Assembly (NCBI GenBank): GCA_043228905.1
Contig: JBHGNT010000065.1
Location: 62,001 to 126,000, forward strand
Length of the DNA: 64,000 bases
Direction of reading: 5' to 3'
Origin: Azolla caroliniana
Taxonomy: Eukaryota > Plantae > Polypodiophyta
Shown: positions 9,086-63,070 of the stretch, piece after piece
Numbering within the stretch: the stretch's first letter is position 1
Layout: every line of letters starts with the position of its first letter
The notes under the pieces: model-generated
Databases searched by the model: none
Seen by the model: only the letters and a program-made list of their open reading frames with translations
Told to the model about the DNA's origin: nothing
Program-made: the position numbers and the translations under genes

Positions 9086-9385
9086 GCAGTAGGAGTTGAA
9101 CCTACCGAACACCGTACAAAATCTTAATGAGTGTTCTGCGATCGCCACTCAACCTGTGACTGCTTAAAACCGAGACAAAAAGAAGCCCGCATAGATTATT
9201 ATACAATAATCTTCGGACGTTTGTAAAATGCGGAAGAAGCGCGGAAAGAATTGGTCGAGTACTTGGACAGAGGATTCATTGTTTCGACGAAAACGTCTAC
9301 CAAATGACCCTGCATCCTCTGTTTTTTCCTTTACGCTCTTGAGTTCTCTTTCCGTGCTGTGCGATACGAAGTTTGTACAATCCGC

Positions 9386-9423
<38 letters not shown>

Positions 9424-9708
9424 AAGGGCTTCGTCCTTCCTCCTTTCTTAGCGTCTCGTTTAACTAAACACTTTAGATTTCCCTGACAAGTTCCCTAGCT
9501 CTCTCGAGCGTAAGAGTTGAGGAACAGATTTTCCGATAATGCATGCCAGCCAGGGATTTACGCATCATTGGTATTGTGTGTTTACCGTTCTAATCTGTCT
9601 TCACATCCATAGCTTGCTTTTTTGCGTTGTCGTACGCCTTTTCATTGTTTCTGGCTGATATCAGATTCGCATCTGACCTTTAGGCAATCGCATATACGAT
9701 TTGAAAGG

Positions 9709-23451: not shown

Positions 23452-23709
23452 ACGAAGCCGTATATCCTTCGTCTCCTAGCTAAAATCTTTGGAATCATCA
23501 TATTACTTTTACCAGGAGTAGTCTTTCCAGTGTCAGTCGAACGTAAAGTCATGGCTTCCATGTAACGTTGAAAGGGTCTTAATGTGGTGGGATCATCTGG
23601 GTTGTTATAACTCTTAGCGGATGGTTTGAAATCAATTTTAAAAGAACCTATTCCACCTCCAAGTGCTAATTTCTTTCTTTCTGTAATGGTTCTGGTAATT
23701 ACATCTACG
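23452..23709 (+). CDS. nad1: NADH dehydrogenase subunit 1, exon 1 (ACG start, edited)
   Basis: ERKVMASM*R*KG.NVVG..GLL*.LADGLK.ILKEPI; exactly 258 nt followed by GTGCG. Confidence 0.93.
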
Positions 23710-24459
23710 GTGCGCCGTGCGAGGCTCGTTTTCTTTCCGGAAGAATACCCTTCTACAACCAACATAGATGTTTGACTTGGAAGTATATACGGCGGGCCAA
23801 TACAACATCTTGGGCTAATAATCCATCGAGTTCGCGAGCAGTTAGTCGGAAAGGGGCGAAGCCGGGCAAAGCGGTTTCCCCGGTCCCCGAAGGAAGGACG
23901 GCTTAGCCCTCCTCGGTGGTGTCTCTCAGCTGATGCGAGAAAGGTTAGATTGACTCACTTGGTACGTACCTACTGCCTGAGTAAGGGCTACGTATCCCGA
24001 ACAGAATACGTCAGTATGTGTGTGGCGGAGTAATCCAGGGCCCAGTTTGGGCGAAAGCCTTGACTTCCACATGAAGCGGTCAAGGTTGCCGGACAGCCAG
24101 CCACAAGTAATTCCAGCATAGGAACTGACTTAAACAATCGAGCAGGTGCGCAAAGACCTGTAACCATTGGGTGCTCTGACGGGGCGAAGCAGGGAAGTGC
24201 GTAGCGCTTACTCCGTCCTCGAAAGGCAAAGACACGAAAAGAGAGCAACCACGGGAAGTAACCGCTTCGCATTGTCTAGTAAACGATGCGCGGTCTCAGA
24301 GGTCGCATAGTAGCGAGGGAGGAATGCCAGAAACCTGGCCGAGCCGCGAAGGCAACTAGTCAGAACAAACCTTAGTTCAACGCGGCCAGTACGTATGCGG
24401 CCGGCCGGCGTTGAGAATAAGGAACAATTCTTCGAAACGGAAGGGACGGCAATACTCTC

Positions 24460-24496
<37 letters not shown>

Positions 24497-24574
24497 TTAA
24501 GGTGTTCCGAGTGAGAGCTGTATGACAAAAGATTGCCACGTACGGTTTGGAGGGCAGCATTGACTGACCCCTAT
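23710..24574 (+). other. Group II intron nad1i258 (cis)
   Basis: 5' GTGCG; domain V GAGCTGTATGACAAAAGATTGCCACGTACGGTTT; 3' CCTAT. Confidence 0.9.
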
Positions 24575-24710
24575 TTAAGTTTGGTTGCTCGGGCTGTTAC
24601 ACTTTCTGATTATGGTATGGTATTGTCGGATCCAAATGTAGGTACATTCTATCTATTTGCTATATCTTCTCCAGGGGTTTATGGGATTATTACAGTGGGT
24701 CGGTCTAGTA
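24575..24710 (+). CDS. nad1: nad1 exon 2
   Basis: [35 protein letters not shown]; 136 nt, cumulative 394. Confidence 0.93.
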
Positions 24711-26226
24711 GGGCGGCCGTTCAGTCACCTGTGGTACTAAAGCAGCCAGCCCGGCCCGCCCATGTGGTCAAATTGTTTGTAGTGTGGAATGATCTGCTCT
24801 ATACAGGGTGTAGGGCTCTTCGACAGAACTAGTAATAGGCTTGACTCGCGATTTGAAGGGTAGGGGGGGTTCTTGTGTAGGAGGCTAAAAGGGGATAGGG
24901 ATACGTTCAAAGAAGTTCAGGAAGAAAGGAAGAGCATGCCGTAAAAGCATGGTTGAAGGTCGATCCTGTCTTCCCAGGGAGTACCTAACAACACCATGTG
25001 GAAGAACCAACCTTGTGGATCAGGATGAGGTGCCGTCCTAGCGAATTGAAGTCTCCTTGGGTAGCCAACGACCTACAGTTATCCTTGTACCTCTGTGCCG
25101 AGCGAACGACTGTACGCTGTCTTGTTTTCTGCCAGCTGGGATTGCTTGCCGGCCAGATCGGATTGGAGCAACCATTGCATGAAGGCACATTACCCATCCT
25201 CTTGGGGACAAGAGACTGAACGACATCCCGATTTACTGCATTCCAGGACATCTGGGATGAGAGCCGTAGGTGATACCGGCGAAACCCAGCCAGATTTTGT
25301 TCTGGCAGGTAGTCAGAGGACTCATAGTACCCGCCCCGAAAGGGGCCCCTCACGCACGCACGGGGAAGACGCTAGTTTTCAGGGAAGAGGAAAGTCTTTA
25401 TTTCTTTTTCCACGTTGTTTTCTTCTAGCAGCAGGAAAGGAGTCTGGATGTCTGCCTAGCTTCGGCAGATTCTACTCAACGCAATCTGCAAACTCGAATC
25501 CCCGAAACCTGACTCAATGCGGAATAGAATTGATCGTCGTTTGGTGGATCTCCAGCAAGCAGTTTTAACTAAAAGAACAGGACATACCACAAAATTCAGA
25601 GAGAGAACACGAAGCGATCGATCTGCTTACCGAGGGCTAAGGCTAGACCGCAGGACCTGGATTTATGACGTCCGGCCCGCTCCTCTCGAGTCCTGCCTGC
25701 TGGGAACGAACCACGAGGACGACCGCCAAGAACGGGCGTACTCGAGGGGGGCCAGAACCAAGCCCAAACGGGACGGAAGGGTACGGAGCGAGGTATTATA
25801 AAGCATTGCTTTATGGCGGCCGAAGAAAAGAAAAGAAAAGAAAAGAAGCGGTTTTCATCATCATGCATGAAGGCGCGCGCGCGCGCCGGTTCATCATGAA
25901 GGCGCTGAGTCAGAATTTTCCACTCCGCTAAACTAAAGAGGACGACAGAGAAGCAGGAGACGACGAACCCCTGCAACTACGTCGGACCTCTCGGAGTGAA
26001 AAAGAAAGCCAGATGGTGGTAGACTATCACGTACGGCTTTGCCCTCCCCGCCAACCACGTGTCAATGTGCCTCTACGGAAGGAACATCGACGGGCGGGTT
26101 TCCCGGGCGATCTAAAGCAAGTTGTTGGGGTAGAGAGCCGTATGCGCGGCGACGTGCTCGTATGGTTCGGAGAGGACTCAGCGTACACTGATCCTGTTGA
26201 TTGGTGGAAAAGCAGCTTCACTCCTT
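24711..26226 (+). other. Group II intron nad1i394 (cis)
   Basis: 5' GGGCGGCCGTTC; domain V GAGCCGTATGCGCGGCGACGTGCTCGTATGGTTC near 26135. Confidence 0.88.
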
Positions 26227-26560
26227 ATTCCAAATATGCTTTTTCAGGAGTATCATGATTTGCCGTCTAAATGGTTTTGTACGAAGTATCTATTGGTCCT
26301 ATTATCATTACTGCACTAATTTGTGTAGGTTTTTGTAATTTTAGTGAGATTGTCATAGCGTAAGAGCAGATATGGTTTCGCATTCTCTTGTTCTCCGTAT
26401 TGATTCTGTTTTCTATCTTTCGCTCAGTAGAAACTAATCGAGCTCCGTCTGATCTACTAGAAGTAGAAGTTGAATCAGTCGTGGGCTATAATGCGGAATA
26501 TCTTTTAATGGGATTTGCTCCCTCTCTTTCGGGAGAATATGCTAATACGATCTTAATGAG
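26227..26560 (+). CDS. nad1: nad1 exon 3 (no i477 or i669 introns)
   Basis: SKYAF.G...YEVSIG...[19 protein letters not shown]...GEYANTILM; 334 nt, cumulative 728. Confidence 0.93.
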
Positions 26561-28018
26561 GTGCGGAGCCTTGCATCCGACATTCGTTGGGCTTCCGCTC
26601 CCTGCAGGAGCCAGCGTCCCCTCAAGGGCTTTGTGCAGTAAACTCCTCCGGGCGACGATCTGAAGACTAGTAGGTCCCGCGAAGCTTTCGAAGAGGGGTA
26701 GCCTGGTGTGTAAGCACAGCAATGAACCGCGAACCCGTCGGACGACCTATCTAAGATTAGGAGGATATCTCAGGTGGTTATCCCGCAACTCTTCCCCAGA
26801 CCTATACTATCGAATGCTCATATGGGAAAGTGCGCTCTTAGGTCTGGAACCAGGGAGGGTTGCTCCGAGAAATCCCTTCTCGTTTCCTCCAGGGGGTGCG
26901 GACACACTTGCACGGATTACAGGTGACGGCTACAAAGATGGCGGGGAAGGAAACAGTACCCGACATCCAGGGATGAATGTAAACTCATTGGACAGGGGTA
27001 ATCATTCTGGTCCTGGGAGAGAAGACTCACCAACAACAGTGGTAGACACTAGTCTGAAAGGCTAGCAAAACAGAATCACCGAGACAACGGCAGCCCCATG
27101 TACTCCTGTTGCGGACGAGAGACTGCTTGCTTGCTTGCTTGCTACTGGCGTCCCATGAGCAAATTGAGTCTGAACCAGGCGACTTAACCCCCAGCGAAGA
27201 GGGATTTCTGCTGAAAACTTGTTCGTTACGTTACGTTAAAGGGGATCTTTTTGGAATGGTCGGAGAAAGACTCGCTGCGCCTCTTGTCAGGCGCCTTGCT
27301 CGAGCCCGCGGGAGAAGTGATGGTACTGTTTATTTCCAAAAATTCGTTCTCGGAGTCAGAAGGTAAAGCACCGTATCTCACAGCTCCCTACTAACGCTCC
27401 GCTATCAATTCCAAGTTAGAGGAGGGAGGAGTACCCTGGTCTGGTAGCCAACCCACTTTAATGCTATCGCATTCTCTCTGCTGGGTTAAAACCTAAAGAA
27501 AGTGTGCTTATCAGCAGCAAGCACAAACCCGGTTGGTTGTTTTCAGCTGCCCTTTCTGTAGGTTGAGTGGCTTCAATCTCTCCCCCCGGCAGGCAGGCAG
27601 GCAGGCAGGCAGGAACTTTCTCGCTCGGCCTTTGACCACCTACCTCTCATTGTTCTCCTGGGGACTCACTCACTTTAGAGATTTTTCTCCGTCTATGCGG
27701 GCTCTAAGCCGATGAACCGGTTCATCATGAAGGCCTTCATGATGAAAAAGGGGTTGGCGGGTTTGATGAACCGCCTTGTAGGCCAGCCTGAACTGTAAGT
27801 CGATCCCACTCTGCTGCTGCTGTGCCAACCACCACCGAGACATCCATGCGAGAGAGAGATCGGATTCGAAGACCTAAACGTTGCATTGGTTGGAGAAGAG
27901 GAAACTCAATATTCCCGGGACGGAGCCGTATGACGCGAGAGTGTCACGTACGGTTCTTTGAGAAGGGTGTGGATACACCTATTGGGCTAAGGGCCACAGA
28001 GCCGCGCCCTCACTCTCC
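26561..28018 (+). other. Group II intron nad1i728 (cis, no intact matR)
   Basis: 5' GTGCGGAGCC; domain V GAGCCGTATGACGCGAGAGTGTCACGTACGGTTC near 27923; only 1458 nt long. Confidence 0.9.
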
Positions 28019-28280
28019 TAGTCTATGTACACCGCCTTTCCCGGGAGGTTGGCCATCCATTTTAGATCTTCCTAGTTTCCAGGGAATTCCGGGCTCAATC
28101 TGGTTTGGCACAAAGGTTATTTTCTTTCCGTTCGTATATATATGGGTTTGCGCAGCATTTCTATGACATTGTTATGATTAACCAATGAGACTTGGACGGA
28201 AAGTCTTCCCGCCTTTATCATTAGCTCGGGTAGTTTCTGTATTCGGCGTTCCAGTAGCCTTTGACTGGCTACCTCAATGA
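28019..28280 (+). CDS. nad1: nad1 exon 4
   Basis: SLCT..FPGGWP.ILDLP...IPGSIWF..KV...YIWV.AAF.*..YD*.M.LGRKVF.PLSLA...FDWLP, then CAA TGA. Confidence 0.93.
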
Positions 28281-28739
28281 ATTGAGCATACTGTGATGTT
28301 GAACGTCATAATTAATGGGGTTCTGGTCGGAAGAAAACGGCGTCCAGACCCCTCTCACGCACGCCCGCCGATGGAAATTTCGTAAACAGAATGCCGCCTT
28401 GCGATCGTCCGATCGATGCTTCTTCGAGGGTGAGAGCACCGACCGGGAAAATAAAAGGAGGAAAGAACCGATACCCCAGCTACTACGGCGCGCGCCTCCC
28501 AGATCACAACAATATCTTCTTCTTTTGCTAGGCTTACGGCAGACGCCCTCGGCATAATCGCAATGGACGGCCCTAGGTACGGTAGTGGCGAGTCCAGGTT
28601 GCTTGACCTAAACGATTTACCGCCAACCGAAAGGTAATCGTTCGGTTATGTCAAGGGGTGAGTGCTGTGTCAAGCGGGCGGATGCATGATGAACGCTTTT
28701 CGGGGCCGCACGCAGAAGGAAAAACACAGATTGCGAAAT

Positions 28740-29120
28740 ACGCCTACCATAAATTAATTGCTTCGTCATTGTAGAAGGGCAAAACGTCACAAAACATGTA
28801 CTTGAGCTTCGAATTAATGTCTCTAAAAGTTTGGGGTACGCCCGCGTGTTTCGACAAGAACACTAAAAAAACCTAATCTGGCTTTATGCAAGATAGCCAA
28901 GGCACGTTCAAGCAATTGAAGGAATATCATTGCTCACATCTTTGGCGAGGGTTATAATTCATAGGAGCATCCTGCGGTTACGGCTAGAGGAGGTAGAGTG
29001 AAAGATTCGTTAGGTGTGAATTATCATCGTATTCGAGGAGTTAAAGATTCGTAGGGAATCCCGGATTGAAGATGAGGCAGACTAAAACATGGTACAGAGA
29101 AACCTAAGAATTCGATACGA
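28740..29120 (+). CDS. rps12: Ribosomal protein S12 (ACG start, CGA-to-UGA stop, 9 in-frame stops needing U-to-C editing)
   Basis: PTIN*LLRH...RVSTRT.KKPN.AL.KIAK.R.SN...GEG.N.*EH....RGGRVKD..GV.YH.IRGVKD; 126 codons. Confidence 0.92.
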
Positions 29121-29809
29121 ATAAAAAGGTCAAATCAGGGAATGGTTGCTTTTCTCGCTCATCGCCTTCAGACCGGTTTAATTTTTCGGGAAGACTTTCA
29201 GAATGACCGGCGGAAACTTTTGGAACGGAAAGCCATCCGCTTCGATCCCATTGCAAATATTTCTGCGCCCATCTAGCAGGGCTTTTGTCACCCAGACCCA
29301 AGGGAGGCCGTGAAGGAAGCACATACAGCTGCTCGGAGAGATTAAGCTACATCTGGGGAGTGGATAATAAACAAAAAAGATTAATCAAGAAATTAGTCCA
29401 CTTTTGTATGATTGATGGTAAAAGAACAAAATCTCGTGTTATTGTTTCCTAAACTTCTTCTCGTCTTTCCTGAACTGAACCCGATGTTCATGTTATCACA
29501 CTCCTGGCTAACGCCATAGAGAATGTCAAGCCTACTCGCGAAATCAAGAAAGTGAGAATCGCAGGGACTACTCGTAATGTACTCAAGATTATTGCCAAAG
29601 AACGTTAAGAAACCTTAGCTTTTCGTCGGATCATGGAAGCAGCTGTCAAATGACGTACTATGAGCAGAAATAGCCAGAGCTTGGATTAATGTTCATCTGC
29701 TGAGATACCGGATGCTTATCAAAGAAAGGGAAATGTTCGTAAAAGAAGGGATGATCTTCATAAACCGGCAGAGGCCAATAGAAGTTTCGCGCATTATAGG
29801 TGGCGGTGA
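29117..29809 (+). CDS. rps7: Ribosomal protein S7 (ACG start inferred, long N-terminal form)
   Basis: [26 protein letters not shown]...[18 protein letters not shown]...[20 protein letters not shown]; 230 codons. Confidence 0.9.
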
Positions 29810-31214
29810 ACCATTGAAAACATGTAATGAGCTGGGGTCAAGAGCTGTTAGACACTTTAGCAGCACACACCCTACATCGCAGAATCGAGTAATTGGTAAT
29901 CCATCGTTCGAATGCTTAATGATTCTAATATTGACAATGAGACCTGCCAAAAAAAAAGAAAGCGAGAATTCGATTCTGGTGTGAATTTGGTGCTACGTGA
30001 ATTTAATGAAGAAAGTTCGCACTCCCTTCCCTACTGATAATTGGGGGCATCTGAGCCCGCCCCTCGGACATGGGGGCACAAAAGCAGCACAAAAAGCACT
30101 ATACCCTCCCTGTCTAACTTGTTAAAAAACAACGGAGTAAGTCTTTGCCGGCATTGTTAAGTCATTGGAAAAAGACACCTAACAACAATGAAGATTCGTT
30201 TCCAGAGAGTTTATTCACCGTTGCTCCTGGAGAATACTCTGCAAACAACAAACCGTGCGTGCCCTTTCAAGGTTAATCTCAACGATGAAGCGGCTAGCTC
30301 GACTCCATCGATCCTGTGTACAATGTCTCAGATTACAGGCCTTCGCTGTGGCGGAACTTGATGACCTGGACTGCGAAGAGCCCTATAGTGACGGCGATAG
30401 CGAAGCAGAGGTTGAAGAATTTCTTTTGCCTGCTTCTAACTTTATTATCAAGAATAATGTTCTGGCGGTCAGCGTTAGATAAATCTCATAAGAAATATAT
30501 TCAAATAGGAATTTGTACGTTCAAACCGTGCGTGTGCCAATTGCTCGAAGAAGCAAAGGTTAAGCTTGAAGCCGAAGAAAAGAGAGGTAAGGAAAGATTA
30601 ATGATAAGCGATGGATTGGGCCAAACAAATTCGGCGGATTTCTTGAGAAGGAAGGAATACTTGCAAAAAATGATCGAACAATTTGTTGACGAGAGATCAA
30701 TCTATAATAACTCGCTGGACCTTTTTGATTGATAAGCTGACCAACAAAAGGCAAACCAACATGCAGGATAGGTTTATTGCGCACTTCAAGAAAGATAAAG
30801 AACTAATAGACATTTTAACGTCCTTCGATGTATATACGATTGAAATACTTACGATATTTTAGAATCTTTATTGTTAGATTGTTTATTAATAGGGATTGCC
30901 TCTTTTCCAGAGTCTAAATTATTATTATTAAAATCTTTACCGTCAGATTGTTTATCAACAGAGATTGACCCAGACTCAGATTTTCTTGAGTCTGAATTAA
31001 TCGAAAAACAAAATAGCCACGGCCTTTACCATTAAACTTACATTATAACACTTTTTTTTCAATTTCAATATCTCATTTTCTAATGCTATTGTATGACAGC
31101 AGAAAAATTGCGGTATAAATGAAAATATTATTAATACAAAGAAAACCTTGTTTTCTTCTTTGATCAAACAAACTCATATCTTTAAATAATAAACGAATTC
31201 TAGTTTGAATAGAA

Positions 31215-31410
31215 TCTAAAGCTACTTTTGCTTTCATTCACCAAAAGCAGCTGCTTTGGTTGCGTTGGTTGTTAACCATTTTAAGAGAGTGTATAAGGAC
31301 CTACCACTCTATACGGCGGTGTACGATTGCTTCATATCAAACTACAAAGTATCTTCACTATTACCAGATCTATATAAATCAACCCTGTTCGGGTCTTTAG
31401 GTTGTCCGAT
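31215..31410 (+). pseudogene. Fragment of a linear-plasmid-type single-subunit RNA polymerase
   Basis: ATFA-FIHQK..ALVV...PLYTAVYDCFI resembles the NFIHQKDA...IYTVHDxF motif C region. Confidence 0.6.
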
Positions 31411-31788
31411 GGCAACCAAAGCGTCTTTCTATTGTTCCCCGAACCATTCGAACTCTTTTACCAGATTCTTGGCAGTCCCTTTCCCAAAGAAAGTTGGGAA
31501 GTGCAGTCTCTGCAGGCAGGCAGTTAGCCCCTCGGGTCGTTCAGTCTCGAAGGTATGGTTCGGGCTTCGTTCGTTTCTTGTGACCAGATTCATTGGTTCG
31601 AGGCTACGTACGTTGGATCGGGTTCGGGCCCTAAAATATGTGATTGGGTAATTACGATGGCTCGTATACACGTTCGAGGATCACTCTCCAGGCGACGGAG
31701 GACTGCTTAGTGATTGAAGGGAGAGAAGAAACCCATTTGATTTCTCACTAGAGGCCTAATGATTGCATAACTCTGAGGTTCCAACTGC

Positions 31789-31874
31789 TACGGATAGAGG
31801 GATTTGAACCCCCACGACTGAGTAAGGTCACCAGAACCTAAACCTGGCATGTCTACCAATTCCATCATATCCGC
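31789..31874 (-). tRNA. trnL: tRNA-Leu(UAG)
   Basis: Reverse complement GCGGATATGATGGAATTGGTAGACATGCCAGGTTTAGGTTCTGG...GGGGGTTCAAATCCCTCTATCCGTA. Confidence 0.92.
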
Positions 31875-32001
31875 ACATCGATTCTTATTTCGAAACCACC
31901 CTTTTTCACTGCTAACTGGATAGAGCTAAGAACGCCAATGGCTCGGATGGCGTAGCAATTAGAGGAAACTGAAACACCACCCCGTATTTTTCGATTCTCC
32001 C

Positions 32002-32033
<32 letters not shown>

Positions 32034-32179
32034 ACGCGCGACTTGCTCAATGGAGCCCGCTTACGACGATCCCTTTTAACCTCTCAGGCTCTTATAGAAG
32101 GCTTATAGAATGCCTATATGCTTTCCAAATCAAGTTAGGGTGATGGGAAAGTGGGAATGCTAACTTATGACCATACTCA

Positions 32180-32266
32180 CGGATGGAGAGGGATTCGAAC
32201 CCCCGGTATCTCTCCGAATACTTCGGTTTTCAAGACCGACTCTTTAAACCGCTCAGACATCCATCC
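32180..32266 (-). tRNA. trnS: tRNA-Ser(UGA)
   Basis: Reverse complement GGATGGATGTCTGAGCGGTTTAAAGAGTCGGTCTTGAAAACCGAAG...GGGGGTTCGAATCCCTCTCCATCCG. Confidence 0.95.
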
Positions 32267-32484
32267 CTTTCCCGACAAGATCACGAGCCATCAATAATCA
32301 ACGGGAAAGCGTGCCAAGCTTTCAGGTCTTTGTAAATCGCACGCAACGCCTTCAGAAAACAAATAGGTTGTACCGCAGGGCCTCCTCTTTGGCCCCTCCG
32401 ACCAGAAAGGTTAAGCGTGGTAATTGATCATTCTATTTTAGATTGATAGGAACTAAGGCGTCCTAATAACCAAGTTTACAACCA

Positions 32485-32557
32485 TGGGCAATAACGGACT
32501 CGAACCGCTGACTCCCTCGGTGTAAACGAGGCGCTCTACCAACTGAGCTAATTACCC
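32485..32557 (-). tRNA. trnV: tRNA-Val(UAC)
   Basis: Reverse complement GGGTAATTAGCTCAGTTGGTAGAGCGCCTCGTTTACACCGAGGGAGTCAGCGGTTCGAGTCCGTTATTGCCCA. Confidence 0.95.
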
Positions 32558-33587
32558 GGAGTGCCGGCGATACTTCGGAGTCTCGCCGGCTCTGTTTTCT
32601 GTAGGTCACATAGAAATTTATCCATTCTTTCTACGGCCACGTCAATCCGCTTCTTTTCTTGTTGGGCCGCGCCGCAATTGTCTAGCTTCTGCTACCAACT
32701 CCCCCATCGGGCCGTCTGACTTTACCGTAGCCGATAAGTAGCGTTAATCGTCTTCATCGCGCTGATGAAGCAGCGGGTTCATCCACCACCTTGGTTCTTC
32801 CCCGCAAGCAACTTCCGCCGTATTATCCATAGCTGTTCATCAAGAAGGCCTAGAGTTAGTTTTCCGATAAGATTCAAGCTACAATTTCAAACAGCACCTT
32901 TTCTTCATGAAGCGCAAGAAAACTGCACTGCGGAAGAAGAAGAAGCGGTAAAAAGTGTAATATAAATGGCTACCAAAGTTCTTCTTTTGAACTTTCAAGA
33001 AGGCCTGAATATTCATGGATTATTATACGATAATCTTTAATGCGGCTCAGATTGCGGAAAGAATTGAATGCTGGAATTTCGAAATTCCGTTGGTAAAATT
33101 CAGAAGGATCATGCAAGAAGGCAATATCATCTTCTGGCCATAATCTGCGAATCCAGCAAAGCAAAGCAAAGCAGCACTTTTCTTTTCACTTTAAACCGAG
33201 CCGGCGGCAATCTTGATGAATCACTGGCAAGAAGATGCTTTGCACTTTTCTTTCCACTTTAAAGCAGCAATCTTTGAACTCGGAAATGGCACTTTTCCCT
33301 GCAAGCCTGAAACGCACGCCTTCCCCAAAAGAAAAGCGGAACCACCTAACGAGTATTTTAAACAGCAAGCATGATGAACCGGCATGTTCATCAAACCAAA
33401 CAGGTTCTTCATGCATGCATGAAGGCCTTCATGATGATGAAAACCGCTTCATTGGAATGTCACCGTCTCATTGACAACACGAATGATAACGAATTGACAA
33501 TATGAATAGTCACGTTAGTTTCCCATTCTTAAGCATGGATTATTATACAATAATCTTCATTTGCTTTTTTACTGTTGACAACATGTA

Positions 33588-33661
33588 GTGCGGGGGCAGG
33601 GTTTGAACCCGCAGTCTTCAGGTCATGAGCCTGACGAGTTGGCCATTTACTCCACCCCGCA
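33588..33661 (-). tRNA. trnfM: tRNA-fMet(CAU), copy 2
   Basis: Identical to 10654-10727. Confidence 0.92.
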
Positions 33662-34026
33662 AGCAAGCAAGCAATTGATCTCTCTCTAGCGAATCGGAAT
33701 TTATTTTAGAAAAAAAGAAGCCGGCCAACTCCTATTCAATCTACTTGTGCGGGGGAATGTTTGCTTGCCCGCAGACCCAACTCCACGTGTTATTGATCGC
33801 ATTTCCCGCTGTCCGTCCAAATGAACTTGCACTACTGGTTATTAAAGCAGCATTGATGTTACCTTAAAAGCAGCAAGCGCGCAAGAAAAGAAAAGAAAAG
33901 AAGCAAAAACTAGCACTCCCTTACCGGCTAGGTCTCTCCCGGCAGGCCACTGCCGCATTCCCAAAAAGCAATGTATGGGTTTCTTCCATCACGTCACTGT
34001 CGCATCGCTCGTGCTTCGCACTCGCT

Positions 34027-44167: not shown

Positions 44168-44446
44168 AGGCAAGCTGTGTGTCTTTTCGTGCAGAAACTA
44201 AGGTAGAAATGGAAGCACTTTTTGCTATTCGCCTCACGAGCGGGCTCTTATCACTCCGCTCGCGTAGTGAACGGAACGGAAGGGCGTTAAAGAAAAGAAA
44301 CGTTAGCCGCCCGCTCTTCCATTTCCTAAAAACCCTCAATATGACTAATTGTGTTAGTAGCGGCACTAAATATTTGAATAGGAGAGAAGAGCTAACGTGC
44401 TCAGCAACCGCCCGCCCGTTTAATAATTTATTCATTTTTTGAGCAG

Positions 44447-46030
44447 GTATATTGTCATAATCTGTCTCGATTTGACGGCATCTTGCTATTGAAATATTTA
44501 GTTATCCAACCTAATATAATATTAAAAACTAGAATTAGAGAACATCAAATAGATCAAATTATTATATATGATAAAAAGAAACTGAAAACACCGCTATTAT
44601 ATATACGGGACTCTCTAAAACTATTACCTTCGTTGAAATCTCTAGCTGAGACAATGCGTCCAGAGCTGAGTAGTAAAGGTTCAATTCCGCATAAAGAATC
44701 GAACAAGTTAAATATTAGAGATAAACAATATGAATTAATAAAGTATCTAAAACAGGATATAATGATATTAGCTGGAGTGCTTAAGCAAAGTATAAGAAAA
44801 ATACTGCTTGCTTGCTGGGATCGGTTTAGTATAGATATAACGAAATGTCTGACAGTGTCGTCGATGGCAATGAAGATCTATCGTACTCACTACTATCCAA
44901 AAGCATATCCAATATACAGGCCTGATGCTAACAAAGCATCATTTATTCGACGAGCGAGGTTGGGTTGGTGGCCACACTGATGTATACAAGCCGTATGGTA
45001 AGGAAATGTATTATTATGACGTGAACTCGTTATACCCTTACGTAATGACAAAGCCTATGCCAGGGGGAAAACCTGTATGGAGACTTGTCAGGCAGCGATA
45101 TGGAGCATCTATTTGGCTGCTTTGTGGAAGCGAATGCCCTGATACAATTAAAATACCATTACTACCCTATAAAGATCCTTACATTACAAGGGAACATATT
45201 TCCTACAGGGACGTTTACAGGCGTCTACTTTACGGAAGAGTTAAAATATGCTATAAGATTGGGTTACAAAGTAGAAGTTAAGCATGGGTATTTATTTGAA
45301 AGGAAAGAAACTTTTATTGAATTTGTAAGCGAGATATATAAAGAGAGGCAGGAAGCAAAAAAGAGAGGCGACATGGTGACGTCATCTCTGCACAAATTGA
45401 CAATGAACTCTCTGTACGGAAGGTTTGGTATAAAACCAGAAATGAATATAACAGAGATCTGTGATCAAGAAAGACTTGACAAGATAATGTCAATATATCC
45501 ATATGGTATAGCTGAAGCTATAAATAATACGCATTATATATTGACTTATACAACACAAATGCAGCAGAAACTGAGAAATGAGGATTGTAAAGACGATTCA
45601 TTTAGATCGATGATTCATTGGATGGACTCACGGAACGCCGGCTCTTCCTCAGCTGTACAGATGTCGGCAGCAATAACAGCATATGCTCGAATACACATGT
45701 ATCCCTATATTTCCCGGGTTCCTACTATACCGATACAGACTCTGTAGTACTAGACAAACCGTTGCCTCCGGAGTTAGTATCTTCGAGTTGGGTAAATTTA
45801 AGCTTGAATATAAAAAAGTAATAGAGGGTTATTTCTTAGCACCTAAATGTTATGCATTTAAAATTGAGGATGGTGATATGGTAAGATACAAAGGTGCAGC
45901 CAAGAAATTGGTAAATTTTAAGCGAGGAACAATATCAAAACCTTGAACGAGTACAAACCTTCTAACAGCTAACTTTCATATAAATTGGAAAGATCTCAGT
46001 CAGCATTTACCGCAAAGAAATGATGCTTAA
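44447..46030 (+). pseudogene. Frameshifted family B (protein-primed type) DNA polymerase of mitochondrial linear-plasmid origin
   Basis: HNLSRFDG, RDSLKLL, YLKQDI, GGHTDVYKPYG..YYYDVNSLYPYVM, KLTMNSLYGRFG, YYTDTDS, LGKFKLE and LAPKCY spread over several frames. Confidence 0.9.
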
Positions 46031-48625
46031 TGTGGGTATTGATCCCTCTCTCAAGCAAGCAAGAGATAATTGGTATTCAAGGATGGGCTGTGGGTAGATA
46101 CAAACCCTAAAAAGAAAGGTTGAAGAACCAACCCGTCCCGTGGCTTCACCTAATAAAGTAGCAGCTGTAGAACCTACGCCGCAGAAGCGCAAGAAGAGGA
46201 AAGCTACGAGTCGTGAAGAAGTGTTACAACGTCGTGAAAAGAAGATGTTACAAGAGAAAATACAGAAGCTCGAAGAAAATGTATTGAGCGATTAAAACGC
46301 ACGACAATCGAAGAAATGTTACAGCTTGAGCTTCCAAAGTTCTTCGAAAAGCTACAGAAAAAAGAATAACTTCAATTATATAAAATGGTCAAAAACAAAG
46401 AAGAAGATCTTTGGAAGACAACCCATAAAGAAGAGGATAATGGTCTAAAACAGCAAGCAGCAGTTCACGGAATGTACTGGTGGCATAGTCGCTGCACAGG
46501 CCAACAACGACATCAAAGTTACATCGAAAAAAAAGGATCAAGCTACTGCCTGCGAAGAACGCCGACTCGCAGCATTATGCTACTCCAACAACATCGAAGA
46601 TAAGTGAAGAATATAATATAAGTAAGGGCACTCCTCCTTGACTTGATAAATAAGTTGCAGAGAGGAAGGAAGGAACAGGATTGAAACATGCCTCAAAATC
46701 TATTCATCATTTCCTAGGCAGAAATCAACGATTGGGCGTTTACCCATCCATCCTAACGGCCGGCAGATTAGACTCTTTAAAGCAATGCTTTATAATAGAT
46801 AGAGCTGCTGCATTGTTTCTTCTTTAACAACTTTATTAGTTGCGGGAGGTTGATAGAATAATTGTTCTTGTCTGCTTGCGTAGACGACATATTGAAAAGG
46901 ATTGGACCCTCTAGCCGTAACCGTTAAGACAGGTGCTGCTCTCCCAGCAAGCAGAGTTGGTGGGCGGGATCTCGCTGCATCGAAAGATCAGTCTAATGCG
47001 AAGACCGCCCGCCAAAACAAAAACAAAATTGCATGATGCAGCTACTCGGCAGGCAAAAATGTCTGCATCGACACTACGTGAAGAACGGGTTCAGCGTGCG
47101 TGGGAAGAACCGCAGCAGAGTGAAGCAGGATTGAACTCTTCATCCAATGCCATTTCCTAGGCAGAAATCAACGATTGAACCTGAGACGTTTACCCATCCA
47201 TCCTCTAAAAGATTAGACTGCGGCTTTCAATATTAATTTATAGAATAGCATAGAAATGAAAAAAACTCTGCACTGTGGGCTTCATTGTCGCAGCAGATTC
47301 GGCATGCTGATGTAGCGGGGAGGACTCTCTTTCACCATTACTGCCTGCCTGCGCGAAAGGAAAGCAGCTAATCTCAGAATTTTTTTGAGGTGGTGGTAGT
47401 GTTCGGCGGCGAAGAAAGTGGTTCATGGTGATATTCTTATTCATCATTTATAAAAGGATCATCCATAAGAGGATTATCATATGCAGTATAACTATGTAAC
47501 CGGGCGGAGAAGGCAGTTGAAGCTAGATTTTCATCTGTCGCTGCTTCTTTCTGTCGTCGAAGAACGGCGACTTCCCCTACGAGATAGGTCTGTATCAGTT
47601 TGTGTTTCGGCATCAGTTGGCCTTTCTTCAGTTTGTGTTTCGACATGTTTTGATCAACGGGAGGTACAAGAACCTCATCAGCACTGTCAGTGGTAAGAAG
47701 ATTTGTATTTTCCACGTAAACCTGTTGGGAGGTATAATATCACTGTCACTCTCACTACTATTGGTTAATAGCGATGGACGATTTATGACTGAAACTGAAT
47801 AACTTTCAGGCAGGATATAGAACAGTATGCATTCCGTTGTTTCTAATAGTAGTTATTGGAGGTATATCAGATGCAGTAAGATAGGAATTAATTTGTAAAT
47901 AAATTTCAGTGAGTGTCTGAAATACCCAATAATGATGATTCCCTGCTATTAAAAGATAATAATCTTTCCACCCACAATAGTGTTAATTTCGCTTTCTGAA
48001 GGCCTGGTATCTAGCCGCATACCACGCTGAATGCGCTCATGTACCAATCTTATACAAATTCAATAAAGAAAACCTTTCAGGTTGCTTGCTGTAAAGGATA
48101 CTGAATTGACATGTAGAATTCGTTGCTGTTATGAAGCAGATAATCTAATGCATACGACGCGCTTTCCATTATTCTACCTGTTGAATTTACAGAGTCTATT
48201 TCGTTTAAAGCGGTAAATTAAGTCTGTTATGTGGAGGTCTCAGCCAATTATATAGATATAAGAAGGGATTGGATTCACCTATTATGCTACTAGCAGACGG
48301 GCTACTGTCACTGCTACCTCCACCACTACTACCGCCAAAGATATAGGTTATTACACATATATTTATAGTAGTGAGTACCACTCCCCAAAAAGACTTATTT
48401 TTATACATTGGTTCTTTATTTGTAGCGTCACCCGATTCTCCTAAGACCTGCGCAAGCAACATTTCCCGAGCGAGACCTGCGCAAGCAACATTTTCCGAGC
48501 GAGACCTGCCTGCGATTCTACTCCTTCTCTAGCAGAACCTGTTGATATTTTAACTGATTCCGAAGAATAATAATTTAGCTCTCTGTCGTCCTTCACTACA
48601 CGCTCAGCCGAGAATCTTCTCTCGC

Positions 48626-48665
<40 letters not shown>

Positions 48666-50232
48666 CTTGAACTACTATCAGCCGTAGTTTTAGAGCCTTC
48701 TTCCGGTACATGCTTAGGCTGCACACTAGCCCCACCATTTTCGGTTGGTTGCTGAGGAAGAAGAAGGTTGCGTGCTGACCGCAGAACCAACCTCGAGATG
48801 CTTCTATATCTTCTCCGGCTGAAGACATAAAACATTCTAAAACATACCTATAACATCTATTTGATCTTTTATTAATGGAAGATCTATCACGCCTATAAGG
48901 TACCATGTTAGACCACCTAACAGTAAGACTTGCGCATTCGCATATAACTTCTTTTTTGTTTGTAATAGTTCCATTCTTTTTTACACTCACCAGTGATAGA
49001 ATCATACTAGTTATCCCACTTATTCCCAATAGATAGAATAATTGATTACTGTCACCAGCTATAAACTTGTTTGTTGCCTTCTGGTCTAAAAAGAATTACC
49101 ATTATATAACCTAAAAGATGCATACAAACAGCTGTTGTCCAAGTTGAGAGCAAATGATATCTTAAATCTATTAATAATTTTTTTGGATCGACCGATCCTG
49201 TCAGCATATGTAATCTTTTTGATAAACAAATTTAAAGACTTATATATCAAATACTTATAAACTCCATCATAAAATGATGATATTCTTTTTAGTACTTTAT
49301 ATTTCTTCTTATTCCTTGACAAAAAAGCTTCGTAATTCATGTTGCCTGAAGTCAGTCGTAGACCCTGCCGCCGGACTGCAGGTCTGGTTTCAACGAACTT
49401 TCAGGCTCTAAAAGATACATTGAATCACGGTTTAGTTTACAAAGCAGCACTGCTTTGGTCTCTGCGGCCGGCGGAAGAAGCGTTGAAGGATTGCTTTGAT
49501 TCATTGTCTGCAGACAGGCCTGGATGCAAGCAACAATTGTGAGCTGACAGGAAGAAATAGGTGATCTCCCAGCTGCTGCTTTTGATTGTGTATTTGATTG
49601 TGTACTTGATGAAGGCCTTTTTTGCTGCTGTTTATAACCCTTTCTTTGTTTCTTCGACCCACTCATCAATATATCTTCCTGCTCTGCACCTTCCAGCTGG
49701 GTAGAGTGCTTTTTATATGTCGTTTTCGGGCGGGCCTTACTCAACCGCATTCTTAGCGATAGTAAATATCAATAGGCTCGGTCAAATAACCACCACTCAA
49801 AGTAACTGTTTCACATTCTTTCTATTCTTTCTATTTTATAACCCAAAGTACTAGCAGAACAACCATTGGTAAGTTCAACTTGACAGGTAAGAGATTTCTA
49901 ATATTGTATAAACATCGAACATAGAGTCTTTTTTTCTTAAAAAATCCTCCTTCCTGCAGAACAAATAACTGGTTGTTCATCCATGTTTGGATTCTCCATA
50001 AGTTTTACTAACTCTTTATCAATTAACAATTCCAAAATGTAACATCCCAAAACATTAAACATTTTTTATCTAAATTGTTTTCAATAATATTATTCTATTC
50101 CTCATTAAAACCACCTTCACAACAAGTACTAAAAGTTAGTTCACAACAAGTACTAGAAGGCTCAATCCTGTTCTTTTTTATTAGAAAATCAGTTTATCTA
50201 TAAGCGTTGCGGCCTTTATTTATTTTCTTATA

Positions 50233-51444: not shown

Positions 51445-51552
51445 GATAGTAATAGTAGTATTCGGTTCATTCTGTGTTTTTCCTTCTGCGTGCGGCCCCG
51501 AAAAGCGTTCATCATGCATCTGCCTTGATGGGGCCTGACTCTTCAGTGTCGG

Positions 51553-53496: not shown

Positions 53497-53868
53497 TTCA
53501 AGAGATGGGGAAGGAGGCCCCCTCACGTAATTACTAAGGAGACCCTCCCTTTTGTTTGTAGGAGCGTTAGGCGGGTGAGCGGATAACGGCGGGAATTGAA
53601 CAAGCCGATAGATCACCGCCACCTAACCTATAGGTGGTTTGCGGGAATTGGCCCAGTTACCTCCTATAGAAATGCTTTGTTTGTTTGTCTTTTGGTAGGG
53701 ACAGTCATTACGCGTAGCTTCGTTGGACACAACGACTGGCAACGGTTGATTTCGGCCGGCAGCTTCGGGGAAAGGTTTGAACCCATGGCTATGGCAATCT
53801 ATTTTCTGGCTTCTTTTTTTCTAAAATAAATTCCGATTCGCTAGAGAGAGATCAATTGCTTGCTTGCT

Positions 53869-53942
53869 TGCGGGGTGGAGTAAATGGCCAACTCGTCAGG
53901 CTCATGACCTGAAGACTGCGGGTTCAAACCCTGCCCCCGCAC
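53869..53942 (+). tRNA. trnfM: tRNA-fMet(CAU), copy 3
   Basis: Repeat copy. Confidence 0.92.
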
Positions 53943-54972
53943 TACATGTTGTCAACAGTAAAAAAGCAAATGAAGATTATTGTATAATAATCCATGCTTA
54001 AGAATGGGAAACTAACGTGACTATTCATATTGTCAATTCGTTATCATTCGTGTTGTCAATGAGACGGTGACATTCCAATGAAGCGGTTTTCATCATCATG
54101 AAGGCCTTCATGCATGCATGAAGAACCTGTTTGGTTTGATGAACATGCCGGTTCATCATGCTTGCTGTTTAAAATACTCGTTAGGTGGTTCCGCTTTTCT
54201 TTTGGGGAAGGCGTGCGTTTCAGGCTTGCAGGGAAAAGTGCCATTTCCGAGTTCAAAGATTGCTGCTTTAAAGTGGAAAGAAAAGTGCAAAGCATCTTCT
54301 TGCCAGTGATTCATCAAGATTGCCGCCGGCTCGGTTTAAAGTGAAAAGAAAAGTGCTGCTTTGCTTTGCTTTGCTGGATTCGCAGATTATGGCCAGAAGA
54401 TGATATTGCCTTCTTGCATGATCCTTCTGAATTTTACCAACGGAATTTCGAAATTCCAGCATTCAATTCTTTCCGCAATCTGAGCCGCATTAAAGATTAT
54501 CGTATAATAATCCATGAATATTCAGGCCTTCTTGAAAGTTCAAAAGAAGAACTTTGGTAGCCATTTATATTACACTTTTTACCGCTTCTTCTTCTTCCGC
54601 AGTGCAGTTTTCTTGCGCTTCATGAAGAAAAGGTGCTGTTTGAAATTGTAGCTTGAATCTTATCGGAAAACTAACTCTAGGCCTTCTTGATGAACAGCTA
54701 TGGATAATACGGCGGAAGTTGCTTGCGGGGAAGAACCAAGGTGGTGGATGAACCCGCTGCTTCATCAGCGCGATGAAGACGATTAACGCTACTTATCGGC
54801 TACGGTAAAGTCAGACGGCCCGATGGGGGAGTTGGTAGCAGAAGCTAGACAATTGCGGCGCGGCCCAACAAGAAAAGAAGCGGATTGACGTGGCCGTAGA
54901 AAGAATGGATAAATTTCTATGTGACCTACAGAAAACAGAGCCGGCGAGACTCCGAAGTATCGCCGGCACTCC

Positions 54973-55045
54973 GGGTAATTAGCTCAGTTGGTAGAGCGCC
55001 TCGTTTACACCGAGGGAGTCAGCGGTTCGAGTCCGTTATTGCCCA
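54973..55045 (+). tRNA. trnV: tRNA-Val(UAC), copy 2
   Basis: Inverted repeat copy of 32485-32557. Confidence 0.95.
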
Positions 55046-55263
55046 TGGTTGTAAACTTGGTTATTAGGACGCCTTAGTTCCTATCAATCTAAAATAGAAT
55101 GATCAATTACCACGCTTAACCTTTCTGGTCGGAGGGGCCAAAGAGGAGGCCCTGCGGTACAACCTATTTGTTTTCTGAAGGCGTTGCGTGCGATTTACAA
55201 AGACCTGAAAGCTTGGCACGCTTTCCCGTTGATTATTGATGGCTCGTGATCTTGTCGGGAAAG

Positions 55264-55350
55264 GGATGGATGTCTGAGCGGTTTAAAGAGTCGGTCTTGA
55301 AAACCGAAGTATTCGGAGAGATACCGGGGGTTCGAATCCCTCTCCATCCG
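55264..55350 (+). tRNA. trnS: tRNA-Ser(UGA), copy 2
   Basis: Inverted repeat copy of 32180-32266. Confidence 0.95.
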
Positions 55351-55496
55351 TGAGTATGGTCATAAGTTAGCATTCCCACTTTCCCATCACCCTAACTTGA
55401 TTTGGAAAGCATATAGGCATTCTATAAGCCTTCTATAAGAGCCTGAGAGGTTAAAAGGGATCGTCGTAAGCGGGCTCCATTGAGCAAGTCGCGCGT

Positions 55497-55528
<32 letters not shown>

Positions 55529-55655
55529 GGGAGAATCGAAAAATACGGGGTGGTGTTTCAGTTTCCTCTAATTGCTACGCCATCCGAGCCATTGGCGTTC
55601 TTAGCTCTATCCAGTTAGCAGTGAAAAAGGGTGGTTTCGAAATAAGAATCGATGT

Positions 55656-55741
55656 GCGGATATGATGGAATTGGTAGACATGCCAGGTTTAGGTTCTGGT
55701 GACCTTACTCAGTCGTGGGGGTTCAAATCCCTCTATCCGTA
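55656..55741 (+). tRNA. trnL: tRNA-Leu(UAG), copy 2
   Basis: Inverted repeat copy of 31789-31874. Confidence 0.92.
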
Positions 55742-56119
55742 GCAGTTGGAACCTCAGAGTTATGCAATCATTAGGCCTCTAGTGAGAAATCAAATGGGTT
55801 TCTTCTCTCCCTTCAATCACTAAGCAGTCCTCCGTCGCCTGGAGAGTGATCCTCGAACGTGTATACGAGCCATCGTAATTACCCAATCACATATTTTAGG
55901 GCCCGAACCCGATCCAACGTACGTAGCCTCGAACCAATGAATCTGGTCACAAGAAACGAACGAAGCCCGAACCATACCTTCGAGACTGAACGACCCGAGG
56001 GGCTAACTGCCTGCCTGCAGAGACTGCACTTCCCAACTTTCTTTGGGAAAGGGACTGCCAAGAATCTGGTAAAAGAGTTCGAATGGTTCGGGGAACAATA
56101 GAAAGACGCTTTGGTTGCC

Positions 56120-56315
56120 ATCGGACAACCTAAAGACCCGAACAGGGTTGATTTATATAGATCTGGTAATAGTGAAGATACTTTGTAGTTTGATATGAAG
56201 CAATCGTACACCGCCGTATAGAGTGGTAGGTCCTTATACACTCTCTTAAAATGGTTAACAACCAACGCAACCAAAGCAGCTGCTTTTGGTGAATGAAAGC
56301 AAAAGTAGCTTTAGA
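56120..56315 (-). pseudogene. Plasmid-type RNA polymerase fragment, copy 2
   Basis: Inverted repeat copy of 31215-31410. Confidence 0.6.
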
Positions 56316-57720
56316 TTCTATTCAAACTAGAATTCGTTTATTATTTAAAGATATGAGTTTGTTTGATCAAAGAAGAAAACAAGGTTTTCTTTGTATTAAT
56401 AATATTTTCATTTATACCGCAATTTTTCTGCTGTCATACAATAGCATTAGAAAATGAGATATTGAAATTGAAAAAAAAGTGTTATAATGTAAGTTTAATG
56501 GTAAAGGCCGTGGCTATTTTGTTTTTCGATTAATTCAGACTCAAGAAAATCTGAGTCTGGGTCAATCTCTGTTGATAAACAATCTGACGGTAAAGATTTT
56601 AATAATAATAATTTAGACTCTGGAAAAGAGGCAATCCCTATTAATAAACAATCTAACAATAAAGATTCTAAAATATCGTAAGTATTTCAATCGTATATAC
56701 ATCGAAGGACGTTAAAATGTCTATTAGTTCTTTATCTTTCTTGAAGTGCGCAATAAACCTATCCTGCATGTTGGTTTGCCTTTTGTTGGTCAGCTTATCA
56801 ATCAAAAAGGTCCAGCGAGTTATTATAGATTGATCTCTCGTCAACAAATTGTTCGATCATTTTTTGCAAGTATTCCTTCCTTCTCAAGAAATCCGCCGAA
56901 TTTGTTTGGCCCAATCCATCGCTTATCATTAATCTTTCCTTACCTCTCTTTTCTTCGGCTTCAAGCTTAACCTTTGCTTCTTCGAGCAATTGGCACACGC
57001 ACGGTTTGAACGTACAAATTCCTATTTGAATATATTTCTTATGAGATTTATCTAACGCTGACCGCCAGAACATTATTCTTGATAATAAAGTTAGAAGCAG
57101 GCAAAAGAAATTCTTCAACCTCTGCTTCGCTATCGCCGTCACTATAGGGCTCTTCGCAGTCCAGGTCATCAAGTTCCGCCACAGCGAAGGCCTGTAATCT
57201 GAGACATTGTACACAGGATCGATGGAGTCGAGCTAGCCGCTTCATCGTTGAGATTAACCTTGAAAGGGCACGCACGGTTTGTTGTTTGCAGAGTATTCTC
57301 CAGGAGCAACGGTGAATAAACTCTCTGGAAACGAATCTTCATTGTTGTTAGGTGTCTTTTTCCAATGACTTAACAATGCCGGCAAAGACTTACTCCGTTG
57401 TTTTTTAACAAGTTAGACAGGGAGGGTATAGTGCTTTTTGTGCTGCTTTTGTGCCCCCATGTCCGAGGGGCGGGCTCAGATGCCCCCAATTATCAGTAGG
57501 GAAGGGAGTGCGAACTTTCTTCATTAAATTCACGTAGCACCAAATTCACACCAGAATCGAATTCTCGCTTTCTTTTTTTTTGGCAGGTCTCATTGTCAAT
57601 ATTAGAATCATTAAGCATTCGAACGATGGATTACCAATTACTCGATTCTGCGATGTAGGGTGTGTGCTGCTAAAGTGTCTAACAGCTCTTGACCCCAGCT
57701 CATTACATGTTTTCAATGGT

Positions 57721-58413
57721 TCACCGCCACCTATAATGCGCGAAACTTCTATTGGCCTCTGCCGGTTTATGAAGATCATCCCTTCTTTTACGAACATTTC
57801 CCTTTCTTTGATAAGCATCCGGTATCTCAGCAGATGAACATTAATCCAAGCTCTGGCTATTTCTGCTCATAGTACGTCATTTGACAGCTGCTTCCATGAT
57901 CCGACGAAAAGCTAAGGTTTCTTAACGTTCTTTGGCAATAATCTTGAGTACATTACGAGTAGTCCCTGCGATTCTCACTTTCTTGATTTCGCGAGTAGGC
58001 TTGACATTCTCTATGGCGTTAGCCAGGAGTGTGATAACATGAACATCGGGTTCAGTTCAGGAAAGACGAGAAGAAGTTTAGGAAACAATAACACGAGATT
58101 TTGTTCTTTTACCATCAATCATACAAAAGTGGACTAATTTCTTGATTAATCTTTTTTGTTTATTATCCACTCCCCAGATGTAGCTTAATCTCTCCGAGCA
58201 GCTGTATGTGCTTCCTTCACGGCCTCCCTTGGGTCTGGGTGACAAAAGCCCTGCTAGATGGGCGCAGAAATATTTGCAATGGGATCGAAGCGGATGGCTT
58301 TCCGTTCCAAAAGTTTCCGCCGGTCATTCTGAAAGTCTTCCCGAAAAATTAAACCGGTCTGAAGGCGATGAGCGAGAAAAGCAACCATTCCCTGATTTGA
58401 CCTTTTTATTCGT
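57721..58413 (-). CDS. rps7: Ribosomal protein S7, copy 2
   Basis: Inverted repeat copy of 29117-29809. Confidence 0.9.
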
Positions 58414-58790
58414 ATCGAATTCTTAGGTTTCTCTGTACCATGTTTTAGTCTGCCTCATCTTCAATCCGGGATTCCCTACGAATCTTTAACTCCTCGAATA
58501 CGATGATAATTCACACCTAACGAATCTTTCACTCTACCTCCTCTAGCCGTAACCGCAGGATGCTCCTATGAATTATAACCCTCGCCAAAGATGTGAGCAA
58601 TGATATTCCTTCAATTGCTTGAACGTGCCTTGGCTATCTTGCATAAAGCCAGATTAGGTTTTTTTAGTGTTCTTGTCGAAACACGCGGGCGTACCCCAAA
58701 CTTTTAGAGACATTAATTCGAAGCTCAAGTACATGTTTTGTGACGTTTTGCCCTTCTACAATGACGAAGCAATTAATTTATGGTAGGCGT
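58410..58790 (-). CDS. rps12: Ribosomal protein S12, copy 2
   Basis: Inverted repeat copy of 28740-29120. Confidence 0.92.
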
Positions 58791-59249
58791 ATTTCGCAAT
58801 CTGTGTTTTTCCTTCTGCGTGCGGCCCCGAAAAGCGTTCATCATGCATCCGCCCGCTTGACACAGCACTCACCCCTTGACATAACCGAACGATTACCTTT
58901 CGGTTGGCGGTAAATCGTTTAGGTCAAGCAACCTGGACTCGCCACTACCGTACCTAGGGCCGTCCATTGCGATTATGCCGAGGGCGTCTGCCGTAAGCCT
59001 AGCAAAAGAAGAAGATATTGTTGTGATCTGGGAGGCGCGCGCCGTAGTAGCTGGGGTATCGGTTCTTTCCTCCTTTTATTTTCCCGGTCGGTGCTCTCAC
59101 CCTCGAAGAAGCATCGATCGGACGATCGCAAGGCGGCATTCTGTTTACGAAATTTCCATCGGCGGGCGTGCGTGAGAGGGGTCTGGACGCCGTTTTCTTC
59201 CGACCAGAACCCCATTAATTATGACGTTCAACATCACAGTATGCTCAAT

Positions 59250-59511
59250 TCATTGAGGTAGCCAGTCAAAGGCTACTGGAACGCCGAATACAGAAACTAC
59301 CCGAGCTAATGATAAAGGCGGGAAGACTTTCCGTCCAAGTCTCATTGGTTAATCATAACAATGTCATAGAAATGCTGCGCAAACCCATATATATACGAAC
59401 GGAAAGAAAATAACCTTTGTGCCAAACCAGATTGAGCCCGGAATTCCCTGGAAACTAGGAAGATCTAAAATGGATGGCCAACCTCCCGGGAAAGGCGGTG
59501 TACATAGACTA
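59250..59511 (-). CDS. nad1: nad1 exon 4, copy 2
   Basis: Inverted repeat copy. Confidence 0.92.
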
Positions 59512-62819: not shown

Positions 62820-62955
62820 TACTAGACCGACCCACTGTAATAATCCCATAAACCCCTGGAGAAGATATAGCAAATAGATAGAATGTACCTACATTTGGAT
62901 CCGACAATACCATACCATAATCAGAAAGTGTAACAGCCCGAGCAACCAAACTTAA
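62820..62955 (-). CDS. nad1: nad1 exon 2, copy 2
   Basis: Inverted repeat copy. Confidence 0.92.

Positions 62956-63033: not shown

Positions 63034-63070
<37 letters not shown>

Follow-up and report, generated by a model that had tools for sequence, protein, structure and literature searches.

An edited cytidine at a fern mitochondrial rps12-rps7 junction creates the rps12 stop codon and probably the rps7 start codon

C-to-U editing in plant organelles is specified by nuclear, site-specific PPR-DYW factors. Edits that enable translation by turning ACG into AUG, or CGA or CAA into a stop codon, are described from Salviniales, Isoetes and Selaginella, and share both chemistry and effect with the edit at position 29118 considered here. 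In plant organelles it is common for editing to make both ends of a gene, as described in the available parts of three reports (PMC3074146, PMC4174432, PMC5654404). While separate cytidines there form the two ends of one gene, at 29118 one cytidine likely serves two genes. No single edit creating both a stop and a start was found in the accessible portions of the literature, among them PMC3074146, PMC4174432, PMC5654404, PMC7827865, PMC4727281, PMC3326318, PMC12548569, PMC10027690 and bioRxiv 10.1101/2022.12.23.521604; this body of work lies mostly outside subscription papers (for example those on the mitochondria of Psilotum, Ophioglossum and Anthoceros), and a precedent may exist.

The AUGA geometry at 29117-29120 is that of atpB and atpE in the tobacco chloroplast, although the overlap is DNA-encoded there and made by editing here; translation of that pair is reported as uncoupled, with atpE independent of atpB (PMC3326318, available text). 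The chloroplast pairs ndhC-ndhK and psbD-psbC, which are likewise overlapping organellar cistrons, behave differently in the same text, the downstream cistron depending on the upstream one in vitro. These overlaps are however of another form and were studied in chloroplast systems, whereas the rps12-rps7 pair is mitochondrial and known here from sequence alone. In the parts of the literature covered, no demonstration of translational coupling in plant mitochondria was found.

The closest described counterpart is the published site itself. Table S5 of PMC12548569 contains rps12eU379 (arginine to stop), which corresponds to window position 29118 (28739 + 379) and is entered with creates_stop = 1 and creates_start = 0; its editing in five Salviniales species is given as 0.969, 0.973, 0.978, 0.953 and 0.977. 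Supplementary file 7 of PMC10027690 has the same entry, rps12eU379R*, edited at 0.87 in Haplopteris ensiformis. Nucleotide and stop creation are those of 29118. Both entries, in the available parts of the two tables, carry the stop only and the start role proposed here is absent from them; the edit is thus known already as the rps12 stop, and what the two tables do not record is a role as rps7 start. The numbering of rps7 bears on this. In the available part of PMC12548569, all 18 tested rows fit an rps7 counted from the ATG at 29408, compared with 5 of 18 for 29117 and 5 of 18 for 29360; start-creating rows number zero among the 24 mitochondrial rps7 rows, and rps7 stops downstream of the junction are entered as removed. 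PMC10027690, as far as available, counts rps7 from the equivalent AUG, 97 codons downstream of the junction, and the GenBank S7 protein of Haplopteris (136 aa) opens at the equivalent Met. With rps7 numbered from 29408, the annotated gene covers neither the start role nor the edits at 29136, 29149, 29160 and 29204.

The window (the whole stretch of 64,000 nucleotides that was analyzed) holds this junction twice, and the coordinates of its features are presented in Table 1. The sequence-only reading had placed an ACGA tetramer at the junction and in a mirror copy, and both were read directly, the mirror as reverse complement; both lie inside a perfect 10,193-bp inverted repeat (23530-33722 and 53808-64000). 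The rps12 frame runs from ACG at 28740 through 126 codons (ending TCG ATA) to CGA at 29118-29120, and the rps7 frame from ACG at 29117 through 230 codons to TGA at 29807-29809, reproducing both codon counts of that reading. Its remark that these lengths are liverwort-like also agrees with two named liverwort S7 representatives of 230 aa and with an rps12 end after codon 126 in moss-like loci. Pfam identifies the frames as S12 (E 2e-15) and S7 (E 4e-24). Overlooked earlier were the ACG with which rps12 too opens and the in-frame genomic stops of both frames, nine of which, all removed by U-to-C, lie in rps12. Such stops are the mark of plant editing that proceeds U-to-C as well as C-to-U. The ACGA tetramer by itself is frequent (230 on the plus strand of the window, 0.36% per base); its position at the junction is non-random, since seven of the 12 plant- or alga-like loci described below have an exactly homologous ATGA overlap in their DNA.

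Table 1. Features of the rps12-rps7 junction and its surroundings in the window
Feature	Position	Strand	Remarks
ACGA overlap, rps12/rps7	29117..29120	+	C29118 read as U gives AUGA: UGA for rps12, AUG for rps7 (probable)
Mitochondrial rps12, 126 codons	28740..29120	+	ACG start edited at 28741; stop made at 29118
Mitochondrial rps7, likely 230 codons from edited AUG	29117..29809	+	Six in-frame genomic stops
Candidate rps7 leader, codons 1-97	29117..29407	+	Absent from published fern numbering; edits at 29118, 29136, 29149, 29160, 29204
Backup stop site, CAG in rps12 read-through frame	29136..29138	+	C29136>U gives UAG six codons past the rps12 end
In-frame TGA, rps7 codon 30	29204..29206	+	Read as CGA in RNA contigs of X3, X6, X14
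In-frame GTG, rps7 codon 82, main rival start	29360..29362	+	Aligns with Met1 of annotated Psilotum and Ophioglossum S7
In-frame ATG, rps7 codon 98	29408..29410	+	Published Salviniales rps7 numbering starts here
Second ACGA overlap, identical mirror copy	58410..58413	-	rps12 58410-58790, rps7 57721-58413

Six of 21 sequencing runs were compared with the window (X1, X3, X4, X6, X7 and X14): positions 28650-29900 with X1, X3, X4 and X6, and positions 29070-29330, which include 29118, with X3, X6, X14 and X7. Run X1, which is probably DNA, gave a contig that matches the window throughout 28701-29237, and so has C at 29118. The contigs of X3, X4 and X6 differed from the window by C>T and T>C only; in X4 and X6 the start of rps12 and each of its nine stops are among the changed positions. 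At 29118, T was present in the single spanning contig of each of X3, X6 and X14 (three of the four runs compared, from three studies), and the same contigs carried C at 29204 along with T at 29136, 29149 and 29160. An RNA source is documented for X6 alone and was guessed for X3 and X14; X1 and X3 are different samples, though they share organism and study codes. Contigs of this kind show the base at 29118 and give neither editing fraction nor strand, nor proof of one transcript. The fourth run, X7, did not have the 29204 change and had T at 29118 in minor contigs only (depth 39 of 219), together with G>A at 29119. It was set aside as editing evidence, as it reads as DNA with nuclear copies in which the T/A minor contigs look like CpG decay.

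With respect to the consequences for the two frames, applying the RNA differences by script brought the number of rps12 residues identical to those of three moss-like loci from 74-75 up to 106-108 of 126. The position combines C in DNA (X1) with U in RNA (X3, X6 and X14, different samples), and the change turns CGA into UGA at the homologous end of the rps12 frame, codon 127. Editing of C29118 is real: the genomic base is C and the RNA base U, as had been predicted from the sequence alone, and as is published under rps12eU379. All 30 rps12 rows listed in the available table of PMC12548569 agree with the RNA differences found here, and it is on this agreement that the window is read as a fern mitochondrion of the Salviniales type. 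The same change would turn ACG into AUG at the homologous start of a frame that is open when edited. Of the double role claimed earlier, the rps12 stop stands at the level of the RNA sequence, and the rps7 start stands as a well-supported proposal; we regard the dual role of C29118 as likely.

The comparative set consisted of the best 80 of 443 metagenome loci, 28 of which had rps12 beside rps7. Fifty-two of the 80 were without rps12 within the flank, 16 were bacterial-like without overlap, and 12 were plant- or alga-like, the plant-, alga-, moss- and fern-like labels having been assigned by similarity. Orthologues with a genomic ATGA at this site, which the sequence-only reading had named as a check, were found in seven of these 12, at the same junction and with exactly 126 rps12 codons before it: two are alga-like and five moss-like, the latter of three distinct types. 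The other five, all fern-like, have ACGA, three of them matching the window base for base and two departing from it at 29 and 53 of 730 bases. The three identical loci, L031, L033 and L034, do not count as independent; L013 and L065 have a break on the downstream side of the junction. Moss-like and alga-like loci thus share the four-base AUGA geometry, which is written in their DNA, whereas in the ferns the overlap is present only after editing. The edit therefore restores the DNA state of relatives that edit less.

No second dual ACGA was found at the rpl2 start, at rpl2/rps19, rps19/rps3, rpl6/rps13 or rps13/rps11, or in the rps3/rpl16 region. At C27:199012-199015 (L108:9012-9015) rpl2 apparently opens in a genomic ATGA; the idea that rps10 ends in this ATGA was a guess without support and was dropped, the upstream frame having no Pfam match.

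We consider it probable that the edit at C29118 makes the rps12 stop and also the likely rps7 start as an ordinary, near-complete edit that restores an ancestral overlap, and not as a regulated switch. The ATGA overlap, which the outgroups display at the rps12-rps7 junction, would be the ancestral state. A T-to-C mutation at the shared base would have arisen in the ancestor of these ferns, and would have been tolerated because a putative PPR-DYW editing factor reverses C to U. At the sequence level, edited RNA is expected to end S12 after residue 126, and ribosomes on a bicistronic RNA would initiate S7, of 230 aa, at 29117, possibly by re-initiation after rps12 or else by independent entry. 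If the start role is true, two genes each draw a translation signal from one cytidine, fern rps7 has been annotated 97 codons too short, and conservation counts have overlooked at least one stop removal as well as a start-creating site; a correction to the rps7 annotation is likely. The fern site contrasts with mosses, where this overlap is DNA-encoded, and it lends itself to testing in a natural setting whether translation is coupled in plant mitochondria.

The start at 29117 draws on several alignments. Once edited, 29117 is the sole AUG upstream of the S7 core, and in alignments it falls on Met1 of S7 from liverworts and moss-like loci. Five 230-aa Logan proteins open with Met at the position matching 29117, and presumably derive from edited RNA. 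When fern codons 1-81 were compared with five moss-like or liverwort N-termini, z was 12-18 over shuffles, versus less than 0.4 in the other two frames; codons 1-36 alone matched the outgroups weakly (z 0.2-2.7). All three distinct fern sequences share an indel-free frame of 230 codons, in which codon 30 reads TGA, TGA and CGA and codon 43 reads CGA, TGA and TAA, so that stop and CGA alternate with the frame kept.

The alternative that survives best is that the edit ends rps12 only and that rps7 starts downstream, at GUG 29360 (149 aa) or AUG 29408 (133 aa), the leader being a decaying remnant. We regard this as unlikely. It is consistent with the published numbering from 29408 or its equivalent described above, and with the GTG at 29360, which is kept in three of three ferns, where the aligned Psilotum and Ophioglossum proteins have 147 aa; Arabidopsis mitochondrial S7 has 148 aa. 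Codon differences other than C/T point the same way, with 17 nonsynonymous versus 4 synonymous in the leader and 10 versus 18 in the rps7 core (three ferns, compared in three non-independent pairs), suggesting little constraint on the leader among ferns. The pair also seems to have been split in Haplopteris: in the available part of file 7 of PMC10027690, chromosome 1 has rps7 rows running upward from 129 to 485 and rps12 rows running downward from 28537 to 28160, which would place the two genes about 28 kb apart in opposite directions with rps12eU379 still edited. Against a downstream start, the in-frame UGA at 29204 is removed in all three runs with editing, the frame of 230 codons has remained free of indels in three distinct ferns, and the homology to moss-like and liverwort S7 extends upstream of both. 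The AUG at 29408 faces a further difficulty, in that the S7 core match to plant mitochondrial and bacterial chains begins at codons 84-91, upstream of codon 98, and a start there would drop 10-14 residues alignable with S7 of solved ribosomes.

Some further observations concern start codons in this genome. The rps13 gene opens with GCG (C27:295387, minus strand), and the available table of PMC12548569 enters rps13eU2 as start-creating, edited at 0.95-0.99 in five species; edited GUG starts thus appear to be in use, a point that counts against 29117 as the rps7 start. The rpl6 frame apparently ends at CAA, two codons upstream of the rps13 start. In Haplopteris, edits entered as rps12 3'-UTR (+29 and +43; PMC10027690, available part) may fall in the old rps7 leader. 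A genomic ATGA at 29072-29075 (plus strand), 45 bases upstream of the junction, becomes ACGA by U-to-C at 29073, as a mirror image of 29118; its UGA is rps12 codon 112, and a frame of 11 codons, in phase with rps7, begins at its AUG. Before the codon homologous to rps12 codon 112, moss-like and alga-like loci carry T instead of A. As an rps7 start this ATG was rejected, since editing at 29073 abolishes it and TAA 29105 closes its frame. The ACG at 29225 was likewise rejected, being unedited in X3, X6 and X14. RNA folding did not separate the candidate starts, with unpaired 0.50 at 29117 against a background of 0.46, and 10 of 30 windows as open.

A stronger claim of the sequence-only reading, that the site is a one-nucleotide switch, is not supported. 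Editing in the Salviniales is 95-98%, a ribosome meets the rps12 start edit and nine stop removals before it reaches 29118, and a backup UAG can form at 29136. Without the edit at 29118, S12 would gain 52 residues from DNA, and the UAG made by the 29136 edit caps this extension at six; in the rps7 frame the same edit changes Ser to Leu. Editing of a partial or condition-dependent kind was not seen in the available published values (0.953-0.978 in five species and 0.87 in Haplopteris, one value per species). In the two species ranked, rps12eU379 stood second and fourth of 30 rps12 sites, the lowest sites being at 0.71 and 0.83, and in the available Haplopteris table (PMC10027690) it ranks first among the 29 rps12 coding sites. 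The site is not evidence of regulation.

The coupled initiation of rps7 that the sequence-only reading also proposed may take place, but atpB/atpE, the organellar AUGA overlap studied best, is reported as uncoupled. The rps12 stop and the probable rps7 start overlap by four bases, and edited contigs span rps12 and rps7, a contig being no proof of one transcript. It is doubtful, on this evidence, that C29118 is a coupling point made by editing, at which one factor would write the AUGA for S7 re-initiation after S12 and S7 would carry a translated 97-residue leader. If this were true, C in the DNA would make coupling switchable at one nucleotide, and termination-reinitiation in plant mitochondria would be directly testable. 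Very improbable is a regulated checkpoint, at which one editing factor would gate S12 termination and, via termination-reinitiation, S7 synthesis. One base is indeed common to both codons, and the C is kept in the five Salviniales and in Haplopteris according to the available tables. The authors of PMC12548569, in the available text, argue that selection retains start-creating edits and speculate on translation gating, with partial editing required for control; termination-dependent translation is reported for chloroplast ndhC-ndhK (PMC3326318, available text). Opposed to a checkpoint are the near-complete editing of this site and the lesser editing of upstream ones, down to 0.71, the restriction of read-through to six residues, and the reportedly uncoupled AUGA overlap of atpB/atpE.

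The weakest alternative, an artefact through sequencing error, a pseudogene or a nuclear copy, could appeal to the many in-frame stops and to nuclear copies such as those probably behind the X7 minor contigs (T at 29118, A at 29119), but it is largely refuted and hardly credible given nine identical copies of the stretch on four organelle-like contigs of the same genome (C27, C65, C151 and C152), removal of nine of nine rps12 stops in RNA contigs, the gain in rps12 identity to moss-like loci on editing, and the presence of the same sites in the available published tables.

A nuclear rps12-rps7 copy, 96% identical and still with the unedited ACGA, lies at C5:18249234-18250319. Contig C27 (1-493057, 493 kb) has only about 131,000 distinct 41-mers and contains 99.9% of the 41-mers of the window; it is a highly repeated or recombining mitochondrial assembly. 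Within the window, a 57-nt element occurs in two copies that are 96% alike, at 28677-28733 (plus strand) and 51468-51524 (minus strand), the first directly 5' of the rps12 start and the second 5' of an ATG near 51470, which opens a frame that we take from its motifs to be cob-like. These are its only two contexts in contig C27, and a common role in 5' processing or translation is possible. Three consecutive ORFs of 194, 135 and 232 aa at 44396-45747 (plus strand) presumably resemble the family-B DNA polymerase of linear mitochondrial plasmids, broken into fragments. The window further contains several exact repeats of 0.7-10 kb and numerous GCAA/TTGC and GCAC tetranucleotide arrays, for example at 9369-9435 and 48597-48679.
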